DNA from: Escherichia phage vB_EcoP_PE006
Sequence record: OQ938541.1
Strand: one strand, 5' to 3'
DNA length: 64,000 nucleotides
Shown: in pieces, positions 50,896 to 53,574 of the stretch
Numbering within the stretch: the stretch's first letter is position 1
Layout of the letters: every line of letters begins with the position of its first letter
Notes under the pieces: generated by a model
Seen by the model: only the letters and a program-made list of their open reading frames with translations
What the model was told of the DNA's origin: nothing
Database searches by the model: none
Translations under genes and position numbers: made by a program

Positions 50896-51105
50896 TTAAT
50901 ATTCTTTTACATAACAAACCACTAAGGTTCCCATTTCTGACAGTGTTGATTTATGTAAGCTTACTTTACTATAAATCTTTGGGGCCATCTTAAGAGCCTT
51001 CTTAAAACGGCGAGCATCTTTACGAGTAGCAAAGTGCTCTGTAACAGGTATAGCCGGGTCTTGGTAGAGGTAATATACCACCGTCCAATATTTTTTCATA
51101 ATCAA
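50896..51105 (-). CDS. small basic protein, member of a four-gene paralog family
   Basis: Shares KKxW...TR..AR..KK...SIHK...Y with 52959..53574. Confidence 0.45.
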   Translation of the reverse strand: MIMKKYWTVVYYLYQDPAIPVTEHFATRKDARRFKKALKMAPKIYSKVSLHKSTLSEMGTLVVCYVKEY

Positions 51106-51374
51106 ACACCTAGGGCAGTAGTTAAGAATGCTTTCAGGTTTGCTTCGGTCTGCATACCAGAGAGGCTGTAGTGTGTACCGCTGTTACGGTCAGGTACAAC
51201 GAAAGCAGGGATGCTACGAACCCCGTACTTAACAGCTTGTTCACGACCATCACCCTCAAGGATGTTAATCTCTTCCACTTCTACATCAAACTCCTTAACA
51301 ACCTTCTCAAAGGTAGGAGCCATTGCTTTACATGGAGCACACTGATCACTATAAAACTTAATTACTTTAGACAT
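51102..51374 (-). CDS. thioredoxin-like protein (start at internal Met of track ORF 51102..51428)
   Basis: CAPC redox motif and GVRSIPAFVV, resembling the thioredoxin CxxC and cis-Pro loop. Confidence 0.65.
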   Translation of the reverse strand: MSKVIKFYSDQCAPCKAMAPTFEKVVKEFDVEVEEINILEGDGREQAVKYGVRSIPAFVVPDRNSGTHYSLSGMQTEANLKAFLTTALGV

Positions 51375-51564
51375 TCTATTCCTTGTTAATAAACAGGTTG
51401 ATATGACGTTGGGTAGCAGGAACAACAATAAAAGATTTATACTGACCTTTTGCTAAGTCATGAGCAATCTTCTTTGTCTGACCAAGACCCATCACACAGC
51501 CACTAACAATAATGGCGTGTGCTTGCAACTCTTCAGGGAGTTTTAGTTTCATTCTTCAGGTTCC

Positions 51565-51750
51565 TTACAGCATAGCAAGAATGATAATAAGAGGTAATGT
51601 TATAGCGAAATTAATAAGAACAGCGCTGCCTAGCTTGATAGCTTTAACATCCTCTTCTGATGGGTTTTCTTTAATTGCTAAATTTCGAGCTTTATATATA
51701 ACAGTACCAATTATTAACGACCACACGGCCCACACAATCAGTGAAATCAT
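51565..51750 (-). CDS. small two-TM membrane protein (61 aa)
   Basis: Two hydrophobic segments around a charged loop; tandem paralog of 51760..51939. Confidence 0.45.
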   Translation of the reverse strand: MISLIVWAVWSLIIGTVIYKARNLAIKENPSEEDVKAIKLGSAVLINFAITLPLIIILAML

Positions 51751-51759
51751 ATCAAACCC

Positions 51760-51939
51760 TTATGCAGTCAGGAGGTGAAGCAGGAATGGGATAACAACAG
51801 CTACGACAACCATGATGGTTGATGCTGTTTGAATCTCACCTTTCTTGTCAGGAGTTTCTTCAATAAGCTTGCCAGAAGCCCAATAGATACCACCACCAAT
51901 AAAGACAGCCCAAATACCCCATACGATTGCTGATAACAT
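51760..51939 (-). CDS. small two-TM membrane protein (59 aa, below the track cut-off), paralog of 51565..51750
   Basis: Manual translation MLSAIVWGIWAVFIGGGIYWASGKLIEETPDKKGEIQTASTIMVVVAVVIPFLLHLLTA aligns with MISLIVWAVWSLIIGTVIYKARNLAIKENPSEEDVKAIKLGSAVLINFAITLPLIIILAML. Confidence 0.45.
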   Translation of the reverse strand: MLSAIVWGIWAVFIGGGIYWASGKLIEETPDKKGEIQTASTIMVVVAVVIPFLLHLLTA

Positions 51940-52000
51940 ATATCTATATCCTTATAAATAAGTTCGCCCCACCTCGGGTTAGGAGACAGGGCGGAGGTTT

Positions 52001-52564
52001 TTAGTAAGACACATCGCCACTTGAGTGGGACATGTTGCTCTTGACGAAGTAGCAATACTTGCCAAGACCTTCATTAATTTCTTGAAGCATACTCTGATCA
52101 ACTGGATAAGTGGCTAAATCACCATCAAACTCATCCATCTTCTCAATAATACACATCAAGGTCATGCACATATCAGAGAGCATACCGTCCATATCTAGGT
52201 CAGCATTACCCTCTGAGAACCAAGCATGGGAGAGATAATTGGCTGCTGTAGCGTCCACTTTAACACAGTGGTAACGCATACGTTCAGCAATACGATCTCC
52301 TACTTGTCGTGCGTAATCTTCCAGCTCATCAAACATACCATGAACACCCTGAAATCCTGCACCAGAGACGTTCCAGTGGTAGTTTTTAGCTTTAATATGC
52401 AAGAGTTCCATGTTAGCTTGTAAGCAGCTCAGGATGTGTTCTAGGCTGTTTCCACTAATCATACCCTGCATTGTTTCAAGGCGAGAGATTGAAAGCTCAG
52501 ATCGGTCTAACATATTGTATTCGACACGACCAATATCAGGTAAATCAAAGACATTCTTATGCAT
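52001..52564 (-). CDS. Dps / ferritin-like protein (start possibly at internal Met)
   Basis: NYHWNVSGAGFQGVHGMFDELED matches the Dps ferroxidase-centre helix pattern (HW.V.G..F...H..F.E). Confidence 0.55.
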   Translation of the reverse strand: MHKNVFDLPDIGRVEYNMLDRSELSISRLETMQGMISGNSLEHILSCLQANMELLHIKAKNYHWNVSGAGFQGVHGMFDELEDYARQVGDRIAERMRYHCVKVDATAANYLSHAWFSEGNADLDMDGMLSDMCMTLMCIIEKMDEFDGDLATYPVDQSMLQEINEGLGKYCYFVKSNMSHSSGDVSY

Positions 52565-52886
52565 TTGGGTTATCTCCATCAAGTTCAACTGAATTAGCAA
52601 CGTTACGTTCGATGTTTGCCATCACTTGCTGCGTTATGACAATACAGTTCTGTGGGTCTACTGACTTAGAACGCCCCATTTCAGGGTCATACACCTTAAC
52701 TCGCTTAGCAGTTGAACCTGTAACCTGAAGAACCTTCAACAAATATCCCTGATTACCAATAGACCAAGCAACAACATCACGATTCTTGATAAAGCGACCA
52801 AGCATATCACGATGATAAAACTGTTGCATCACCTTGGATTTTGTAATCTCTTCAGTGGGCGGGGCCACTTTACTCAAATCTAACAT
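52557..52886 (-). CDS. hypothetical protein (109 aa)
   Basis: ORF with an upstream TAATGTATA-like motif. Confidence 0.45.
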   Translation of the reverse strand: MLDLSKVAPPTEEITKSKVMQQFYHRDMLGRFIKNRDVVAWSIGNQGYLLKVLQVTGSTAKRVKVYDPEMGRSKSVDPQNCIVITQQVMANIERNVANSVELDGDNPNA

Positions 52887-52925
52887 AACTCTCTCCTGTA
52901 AAATACAAATTCTTATTGTACTCTA

Positions 52926-52934
52926 TATACATTT
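52926..52934 (-). promoter_or_regulatory. AAATGTATA promoter-like motif (minus-strand sense, one mismatch)
   Basis: About 39 nt upstream of the ATG at 52886. Confidence 0.35.
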
Positions 52935-52958
52935 GAGAGTTACCATATCTACTACCAA

Positions 52959-53168
52959 TCAGTAGTAAACATTCCGAGATAGCATACAAGTACCTTCTGA
53001 GAATTCAATCCAACGATGTATGCTAACATGTTCAACTATACCGACCAGAGCTTTCATGTTCTTTTTAGCAATACGAGCCTCTTTGCGAGTGTTAAACAGT
53101 TTGATATTATCTTTACCTATGTGTTGTTCATGATTCCAAACAACACGAATAGCCCACATCTTTTTCAT
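52959..53168 (-). CDS. small basic protein, paralog family member
   Basis: MKKMWAIRV...NTRKEARIAKK...VSIHR...NVYY. Confidence 0.45.
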   Translation of the reverse strand: MKKMWAIRVVWNHEQHIGKDNIKLFNTRKEARIAKKNMKALVGIVEHVSIHRWIEFSEGTCMLSRNVYY

Positions 53169-53377
53169 CAGTAGTGTACCTTTCCGCTGATATAAACACG
53201 ACCAGAGGAATACTCCTTGGCCTTATGGATACTGATACTATTGACCACGTCACCAGTAAGCATGGTCTTTTTAAAATCCCGAGCTTGTTGGCGAGTAGGT
53301 AGTGCAGTCATAGTCATACCACCTGATGCCCACTTAATCTTTGCTAACCAAAACTGTCTCATAGTGATTGGCCTCAT
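53168..53377 (-). CDS. small basic protein, paralog family member
   Basis: ...PTRQQARDFKK...ISIHK...GKVHY; 1-nt overlap with neighbours. Confidence 0.45.
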   Translation of the reverse strand: MRPITMRQFWLAKIKWASGGMTMTALPTRQQARDFKKTMLTGDVVNSISIHKAKEYSSGRVYISGKVHY

Positions 53378-53574
53378 TAGTAATAAACCTTACTGTTGGC
53401 AATAAAAGCACCTTCGTTATTCACAATAGCTTTTCCTATTGTAAACTTGTTAAATCTAAAAGTAGACTTGTATTGATTTTTGACCCTACGTGCGTGATCT
53501 CGAGTCTTAACAAAATCTACAGACACTAAAACTCCAGTCTTTTTATCATATACACGAACAATCCACTTTTTCAT
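53377..53574 (-). CDS. small basic protein, paralog family member
   Basis: MKKWIVRV...KTRDHARRVK...SKVYY. Confidence 0.45.
   Translation of the reverse strand: MKKWIVRVYDKKTGVLVSVDFVKTRDHARRVKNQYKSTFRFNKFTIGKAIVNNEGAFIANSKVYY

Follow-up and report, generated by a model that had tools for sequence, protein, structure and literature searches.

Four Small Basic Paralogs of Escherichia Phage vB_EcoP_PE006, Three of Which Follow the dCTP Deaminase Gene as a Tandem Array

Introduction

Escherichia phage vB_EcoP_PE006 (sequence record OQ938541.1) carries, in the stretch of 64,000 nucleotides analyzed here and referred to throughout as the window, four genes for small and strongly basic proteins, three of which (paralogs A, B, and C) follow the dCTP deaminase gene (dcd) in tandem and the fourth of which (paralog D) lies between the genes for thioredoxin and ThyX. 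The minus strand carries every gene in this part of the window. Between positions 50800 and 53700 the nucleotide identity to Escherichia phage 172-1 is 97.5%, that to dozens of further Kuravirus genomes is 90-95%, and judged by this likeness the window belongs to Kuravirus (Gordonclarkvirinae, the phiEco32-like prolate podophages). An original prediction, made from the letters alone, had described the four open reading frames (ORFs) as a family of small basic paralogs in a phage early/middle region, and we found the coordinates, the family relationship, and the location (the leftward early/middle region of a lytic phage) to be as described, apart from the start codons of B and D, which are revised here. 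The four ORFs are real protein-coding paralogs, and they probably represent a family of lineage-specific small accessory phage proteins that function by binding and not by catalysis; the ligand that we tentatively favor is nucleic acid or some other polyanion.

The Paralog Family

The relationship between the four copies was examined in several ways. Pairwise Smith-Waterman scores lay 4.9-14.9 standard deviations above those of composition-preserving residue shuffles, and only 0-3 of 2000 shuffles equalled the observed score of a pair. An independently built hidden Markov model (HMM) from the PHROG database, phrog_4939, spans profile positions 1-67 of 67 in B, C, and D and 2-67 in A, and in the four-way alignment M1, a Trp, a T-R and an A-R motif, a Lys, a Gly, and the C-terminal Tyr are invariant. 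Since the shuffles, the phrog_4939 matches, and the family profile all agree, the similarity between the paralogs reflects homology and not composition. Similarity of composition only, named beforehand as one outcome that would undo the prediction, is therefore not what was found.

That the proteins are short, rich in Lys and Arg, and were not detected in the proteomics of phage SU10 could be taken to mean that the similarity is compositional or that the ORFs are not genes. However, shuffles almost never match the observed scores, the PHROG HMM recognizes all four proteins with expectation values (E) of 8e-24 to 4e-29 and their motifs are conserved position by position, the ratio of nonsynonymous to synonymous substitution (dN/dS) stays under 1, ~100 phages share the ORF lengths and starts, and the AlphaFold2 models are confident and concordant. 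This reading retains a negligible probability and has already been refuted by the tests run.

Copy A is the outlier of the family, with phmmer E values of only 0.05-0.4 to the other paralogs, and is counted as a member because of its PHROG profile match and its predicted fold. It also departs from the motifs that had been quoted for the whole family, having TIGK for SIHK and K-N for KK. A search of the 754 ORFs of the window with an HMM built from the four paralogs gave no fifth copy, the next best match having an E of 1.5. Two starts were reconsidered. The TTG at 51105 originally given for D is less likely than the ATG at 51099 (MKKYW, 67 amino acids), which is the most likely start because it is the one annotated in 172-1 and has an AGGTG 7 nucleotides upstream. 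For B, a start at 53362 (MRQFW, 64 amino acids) may be used in place of 53377, since it gives a family-typical N-terminus and is preceded by a GAGG 9 nucleotides upstream.

Table 1. Features of the paralog locus and its surroundings in the window (aa, amino acids; nt, nucleotides; pI, isoelectric point; slots are defined under Relatives, Synteny, and Copy Number)
Feature	Positions	Strand	Remarks
Paralog A	53377-53574	-	65 aa; pI 10.4; ortholog of phiEco32 gp71; phrog_4939 E 8e-24
Paralog B	53168-53377	-	69 aa, or more likely 64 aa from ATG 53362; ortholog of phiEco32 gp70; phrog_4939 E 7e-28
Paralog C	52959-53168	-	69 aa; positional ortholog of phiEco32 gp69; phrog_4939 E 4e-29
Paralog D	50896-51099	-	67 aa; slot 2, thioredoxin-ThyX; no phiEco32 counterpart; phrog_4939 E 5e-25
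gp36-type middle-promoter element AATGTATATA	52924-52933	-	motif match; in the 72-nt gap just downstream of C
dCTP deaminase (dcd)	53575-54108	-	Pfam DCD E 3.5e-34; slot 1 anchor; no gap before the tandem array
Thioredoxin	51102-51374	-	Pfam Thioredoxin E 2.6e-13; stop 2 nt before the ATG of D
ThyX	50224-50880	-	Pfam Thy1 E 1.4e-43; slot 2 anchor together with thioredoxin
109-aa protein	52557-52886	-	
Ferritin/Dps-like protein	52001-52564	-	Pfam match
Predicted membrane protein	51760-51939	-	59 aa
Predicted membrane protein	51565-51750	-	61 aa
Terminator-like hairpin	51965-51993	-	11 pairs, 7 of them G-C; weak T-tract AACTTATTTA
Nucleotidyltransferase, PolyA_pol head	54118-55530	-	Pfam E 8.5e-4, under the Pfam cut-off; PolyA_pol / CCA-adding-type head
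gp79 homolog	58899-59147	-	82 aa; phiEco32 gp79 is a sigma70-displacing transcription factor; unrelated to the paralogs

Array Anatomy and Transcription Context

The ATG of A stands directly behind the dcd stop codon (TAAATG) with an AGGTG 5 nucleotides upstream, the A/B and B/C junctions are stop/start overlaps (TAATG and TGATG, respectively), and the tandem genes A-B-C have an exact repeat period of 209 nucleotides. A Shine-Dalgarno-like sequence precedes each of the four genes, and within the array the 3' codons of one gene (AAG GTn … TAC TGA/TAA) hold the AAGGT Shine-Dalgarno-like element of the next. Because this element sits in the preceding gene, A-C are expected to be translationally coupled with dcd. 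At the DNA level the tandem copies align only over 36 nucleotides that encode the predicted helix (64-75% identity) and at the gene junctions. Nothing aligns beyond these, which rules out a recent DNA-level duplication and indicates that the duplications are old.

Compared with the gap ahead of phiEco32 gene 68, the gap after C shows a single base difference, and the element AATGTATATA that it contains is invariant in five phages, one of them a distant metagenomic phage. This element resembles the consensus tAATGTAtA of promoters for gp36, the phage sigma factor, and gene 68 is among six genes whose gp36 promoters have been located experimentally (PMC8948821). By sequence, AATGTATATA is the counterpart of the phiEco32 promoter P68 and forms the 3' boundary of the tandem array. 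The SU10 paper places coding sequences (CDS) 69-125 in the early class and CDS 25-68 in the middle class. A-C thus end the long leftward unit upstream of P68, the first middle promoter, and would fall in the delayed-early or middle kinetic class, and D, between thioredoxin and ThyX, lies inside the middle unit driven by P68. Generic sigma70 promoters gave eight matches in the region where 8.7 were expected, showing no excess over chance.

Relatives, Synteny, and Copy Number

In phiEco32, positions 46895-47510 encode gp71, gp70, and gp69, all annotated as hypothetical and in the same order and between the same flanks as A, B, and C, and no gene lies between thioredoxin and ThyX. Among 5.8 billion proteins, a word-indexed search gave 99 matches of 48-87 amino acids without Pfam domains. 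Those that carry a source name come only from Escherichia phages or unclassified Caudoviricetes, and the matches sort into four orthogroups corresponding to A, B, C, and D. When 1.84 billion representatives were searched exhaustively with a HMMER profile, just 30 proteins passed E <= 1e-3, each a stand-alone protein of 47-79 amino acids, and a wider profile search seeded with distant members added no new protein kinds, fusions, or named proteins. Relatives of B were absent from the 185,579 bacterial and archaeal genomes scanned, and a scan of IMG/VR gave only four loci. As far as these searches reach, the family is lineage-restricted and found almost only in phiEco32-like phages.

Every phiEco32-like locus examined has its copies in one of two slots, either after dcd (slot 1) or between thioredoxin and ThyX (slot 2), and the distant members P0116 and P0125 sit in the same two slots, P0116 in slot 2. 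Copy numbers were counted by HMM and are written as tandem slot 1 + slot 2: the window, 172-1, NJ01, and KBNP1711 have 3 + 1, phiEco32 has 3 + 0, ECBP2 has 2 + 1, and ES17 has 2 + 0. In ES17 it is the A-type copy that is absent, with other small ORFs in its place. Further afield, Aeromonas phage LAh_8 has one divergent copy two genes upstream of thymidylate synthase, and Cronobacter phage GAP52 has none at E < 0.01 in the 40 kb examined. The 80-amino-acid hypothetical protein gp065 of GAP52 (L010 30224-30466), whose gene adjoins that of DNA polymerase I, carries the motif W…TRKAAR..LK and reaches a family-profile E of 0.054; on this sequence likeness gp065 may be distantly homologous to the family, though encoded elsewhere in the genome.

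The orthogroups differ in how widely they occur among 50,697 phage records searched with tblastn. B-type proteins are encoded in all 97 matching records, C-type in 92 (only four at >= 90% identity to the window allele), A-type in 63 (best identity to the window allele 86%), and slot-2 copies in 39. Going by these counts, B is the most conserved and universal member and A, C, and D are variable, a split into core and accessory members.

Selection and Mosaicism

Orthologous pairs were compared by the Nei-Gojobori method, with neighboring genes scored in the same genome pairs and therefore against the same synonymous divergence (dS). The dN/dS values were 0.00-0.40 for B, 0.13-0.36 for D, 0.17-0.84 for A, and 0.16-0.64 for C, compared with 0.00-0.11 for dcd, the gp68-like gene, thioredoxin, and ThyX. 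The paralogs change 3-10 times faster than their neighbors at the protein level. Values stay below 1 in every orthogroup, and the genes are therefore under purifying selection and encode real proteins. C occurs as discrete allelic types that are ~60% identical between phages with 98-100% identical dcd; the allele of the window is 98.6% identical to that of EcoN5 and ~60% identical to most others. Likewise, many phages share a 100% identical dcd protein with the window, yet in none of the 63 database phages with an A-type copy does identity to the adjacent A exceed 86%. Discrete C alleles in near-identical backgrounds point to mosaic exchange.

Conserved Residues and Predicted Structure

A column analysis of 103 sequences, numbered here as in copy C, found M1, W5, R28, R32, and K35 to be invariant and T27, A31, and the C-terminal Y69 to be nearly so, the terminal Tyr always being the last residue. 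Many positions are fixed inside each orthogroup yet differ between orthogroups, and variation within orthogroups is concentrated in the loops at residues 12-21, 40-47, and 54-63. No Cys or acidic residue is conserved, and neither is His51. The pI lies between 9.0 and 11.1 in 125/125 family members, and the four copies of the window carry net charges of +7 to +11.

The AlphaFold2 model of C, made from a 42-sequence alignment, has a mean predicted local distance difference test score (pLDDT) of 85.9 and a predicted template modeling score (pTM) of 0.70, with strands at 2-11, 21-25, 45-55, and 61-63 and a helix at 28-39. The model of A (pLDDT 80.6) has the same β-β-α-β-β topology, with low confidence at its C-terminal tripeptide. 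The fold is confidently predicted to be a four-stranded antiparallel sheet with one helix. All polar residues that are invariant family-wide (R28, R32, and K35) lie in the predicted helix, on one side. From helical periodicity we infer that A31 and positions 34 and 38 form the buried face of the helix with T27 as its N-cap, and that R28, R32, K35/K36, and K39 line one solvent-facing flank. Positions 6, 8, and 10 of strand 1 and 49, 51, and 53 of strand 3, which are basic or aromatic and paralog-specific, would face away from the helix.

Neighboring Genes

The surroundings of the array vary between relatives. Phages 172-1 (ORF91; L001 5773-5979) and SU10 (SU10_072) have an extra gene of 207 nucleotides between dcd and paralog A, which explains an indel of ~204 bp in the megablast match; the window, at its 53574/53575 junction, and phiEco32 are without it. 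Its product is an acidic protein of 68 amino acids starting MTEEEFQELKG, and 172-1 ORF91 was accordingly rejected as a fifth paralog, being unrelated. In some relatives, HNH homing-endonuclease genes lie between dcd and the paralog array (ES17 L008 20539-21048; L011 3367-3876). The nucleotidyltransferase gene upstream of dcd has a dN/dS of 0.16-0.29, faster than its enzyme neighbors, and in KBNP1711 and ECBP2 a non-orthologous version takes its place; one relative has a faint match to Pfam Gad2 (Gabija anti-defence).

Near paralog D, the two genes for small predicted membrane proteins listed in Table 1 form a second tandem paralog pair, unrelated to the first family (33% identity, BLASTP E 6e-11). 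Where this pair lies, flanked by thioredoxin and the Dps-like gene, phiEco32 has one annotated gene of 180 nucleotides (gp66). The terminator-like hairpin lies just past the Dps-like gene, and the small membrane genes and paralog D follow downstream of it.

Possible Functions

The paralogs are most readily understood as non-enzymatic, because they have only 64-76 amino acids, match nothing by sequence in Pfam, NCBIfam, or the PDB, do not conserve His51, and have no conserved Cys or acidic residues. Our preferred, though tentative, reading is that they use the Arg/Lys helix to bind nucleic acid or some other polyanion; a polyanion is favored since all members are basic and the invariant polar residues form one side of the helix. 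The common ligand would most likely be nucleic acid (phage or host DNA or RNA), contacted by the basic stripe (T27 as N-cap, R28, R32, K35/K36, and K39) with the aid of W5 and the C-terminal Tyr, and the target or context would differ from paralog to paralog by virtue of the paralog-specific face of the β-sheet together with the three variable loops. The proteins would then act as accessory, fast-evolving modulators of DNA/RNA transactions at the early-to-middle transition and not as core replication enzymes.

Several points weigh against this reading. Basic charge alone is weak evidence for nucleic-acid binding, the invariant Arg, Trp, and Tyr could be purely structural through cation-pi or salt-bridge packing, and the exposure of the basic stripe is deduced from helical periodicity only. 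Genes for host interaction, more typically than those for housekeeping nucleic-acid binders, evolve fast, occur as discrete alleles, and vary in copy number, as the paralogs do. The SU10 paper detected gp65, gp67, gp68, and gp74 by proteomics but not gp69-71, which is itself weak evidence because very basic proteins give poor tryptic peptides.

The evolutionary pattern is better suited to the function that had originally been proposed, host takeover or anti-defence. In this reading, each paralog would be an inhibitor that neutralizes a different host protein (part of a defence system, for instance, or a metabolic or regulatory protein), and duplication and divergence would track host variation. 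The family is confined to one lineage (30 matches in 1.84e9 representatives) and B has no close copy in the bacterial and archaeal genomes scanned; related phages have anywhere from 0 to 4 copies, with A in 63, C in 92, and slot 2 occupied in 39 of ~97 records; dN/dS is 0.1-0.84 against 0.00-0.11 for dcd, gp68, thioredoxin, and ThyX; and C alleles ~60% identical sit within near-identical flanks, the A allele of the window being no more than 86% identical to that of any database phage. Gordonclarkvirinae are, in addition, notably resistant to restriction-modification (RM) without a known inhibitor (PMC11990801). This would leave unexplained why all paralogs carry the same basic helix stripe, however, and since that face is invariant across them, one shared type of ligand is easier to envisage than many protein targets. 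Moreover, the proteins are strongly basic whereas the classic DNA mimics Ocr and ArdA are acidic, selection is purifying overall with B universal and highly conserved, and RNA polymerase from infected cells carried only gp36 and gp79 (PMC12276001). The distal position of the genes in the early unit would also mean that they are made too late to protect incoming DNA. We regard inhibition of host proteins, the main rival reading, as possible but doubtful; it and polyanion binding are not mutually exclusive. A further reading takes the paralogs as nucleic-acid-binding mini-proteins of a new class with a share in the broad RM and defence resistance of the Gordonclarkvirinae. They would mask or coat phage DNA, or sequester some part of host immunity that is itself a nucleic acid or nucleotide, with different paralogs covering different targets. 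Such a class is unlikely on present evidence; the authors of the BASEL study singled out the dCTP deaminase / nucleotidyltransferase locus when discussing RM resistance (PMC11990801), and the paralog array is directly downstream of that locus.

The constant company of nucleotide-metabolism genes raises a different possibility, namely that the paralogs are accessory subunits or modulators of dCTP deaminase, thioredoxin, and ThyX, for example scaffolds of a dNTP-synthesis (deoxynucleoside triphosphate) complex. The two fixed slots beside dcd or thioredoxin/ThyX recur in all phiEco32-like loci examined, P0116 and P0125 included, the single divergent copy of LAh_8 is two genes upstream of thymidylate synthase, and A and D are translationally adjacent to dcd and thioredoxin, respectively. 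Yet the enzymes are near invariant (dN/dS <= 0.11) and the small proteins diverge fast and vary in number, which is hard to reconcile with a fixed stoichiometric partnership; GAP52 has dcd and thioredoxin but no member at the threshold and in the region given above; HNH endonuclease and other genes separate dcd from the array without apparent harm; and the synteny may be mere inherited gene order. An enzyme-linked role is accordingly improbable in our estimation. Far less probable still is that the proteins are substrates or carriers of a phage RimK-like ATP-grasp/amidoligase cluster, their C-terminal Tyr carboxylate being extended or tagged by peptide ligation. The near-invariant terminal Tyr is always last and the C-terminus is of low confidence in the model of A, and a 'ribosomal protein S6 glutaminyl transferase' (an ATP-grasp protein in the SU10 paper), a COOH-NH2 ligase, an amidoligase, a glutamine amidotransferase, and a gamma-glutamyl cyclotransferase are annotated upstream in phiEco32-like genomes. 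However, the ligase cluster does not adjoin the paralog genes, GAP52 has the S6 glutaminyl transferase, COOH-NH2 ligase, aminotransferase, and cyclotransferase but no clear family member, and the idea draws on an analogy to RimK and ribosomal protein S6.

Significance

The phiEco32-like phages are a model system for transcription and frequent candidates for therapy, and according to the BASEL study their molecular biology is only poorly studied. Four 'hypothetical proteins' can now be described as a defined family with a predicted fold, orthogroups, and a core (B) and accessory (A, C, and D) membership, together with a short list of invariant residues for mutation (W5, R28, R32, K35, and the C-terminal Tyr). 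Should the proteins prove to be nucleic-acid binders or a defence countermeasure, they could help to explain the RM resistance of the subfamily. Otherwise they would constitute one more lineage-specific accessory family and the practical gain would be better annotation.

Comparison With Known Systems

The original prediction recognized no known family. This holds for sequence searches of Pfam, NCBIfam, and the PDB but not for PHROG, since the proteins already belong to PHROG 4939 and correspond to phiEco32 gp69-71. No Pfam-A family passed its cut-off (the best, DUF5893, reached E 0.055 and 13.9 bits against a cut-off of 25, in one copy), a Pfam scan of 34 members gave no recurrent family, NCBIfam gave no match, and a family-profile search of PDB chains returned only an unrelated M2-1 match at E 1.1. 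At the level of structure, Foldseek found no PDB match to the C model at E <= 1e-3. Among the predicted viral structures of BFVD the only significant matches were uncharacterized Kuravirus-like phage proteins, and weaker ones came from Aeromonas phage LAh_8, Salmonella phage SE131, and Cronobacter phage CsaP_009. All four proteins of the window match phrog_4939 (Kuravirus and Suseptimavirus, phiEco32 gp69-71 included) over its full length, and the family is thus already catalogued but uncharacterized, the PHROG having no attached function; a literature search found no paper on gp69-71-type genes or their paralogy. The array shares its position with that of phiEco32, between dCTP deaminase and the P68 promoter and gene 68; the window differs from phiEco32 in its fourth copy, in slot 2, which phiEco32 lacks, and it has a rare C allele and an A allele no more than 86% identical to that of any deposited phage.

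Several known folds and proteins were compared with the paralogs. Two-layer α/β sandwiches (the PsaD core, ERH, MzrA, ClpS, and RRM/palm-like folds) score in the range of fold analogy and share no functional residues with them, so this likeness is not evidence of homology or function. AbrB and MazE, DNA binders with swapped hairpins, have the same nominal β-β-α-β-β order. The N-terminal hybrid-binding domain of RNase H1 (Cauli_VI, PF01693) has instead the topology β-β-α-β-α, unlike that predicted for the paralogs, and was ruled out, being matched by 1/34 members at E 0.15. A DNA mimic of the anti-restriction type (Ocr or ArdA) was likewise ruled out, the charge of all 125 family members being the opposite.

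Within the same phage group, phiEco32 gp79 is an 82-amino-acid regulator that binds RNA polymerase and displaces sigma70, and mass spectrometry of RNA polymerase from phiEco32-infected cells identified only gp36 and gp79 as phage proteins (PMC12276001). Like the paralogs, gp79 is small, phage-specific, and encoded in the same leftward gene cluster, and it acts by stoichiometric binding. Homology between them was ruled out (hhalign probability 1%, no PDB chain found from the family profile). Phage T7 encodes two further proteins of comparable kind, gp1.2, an inhibitor of dGTPase, and gp5.5, which binds H-NS, each as a single copy. Neither was among the structure-search matches of the C model. 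By analogy, the paralogs may resemble gp1.2 and gp5.5 in being tiny stand-alone binding proteins encoded among genes of nucleotide and DNA metabolism, and would differ from both in forming a diversified family.

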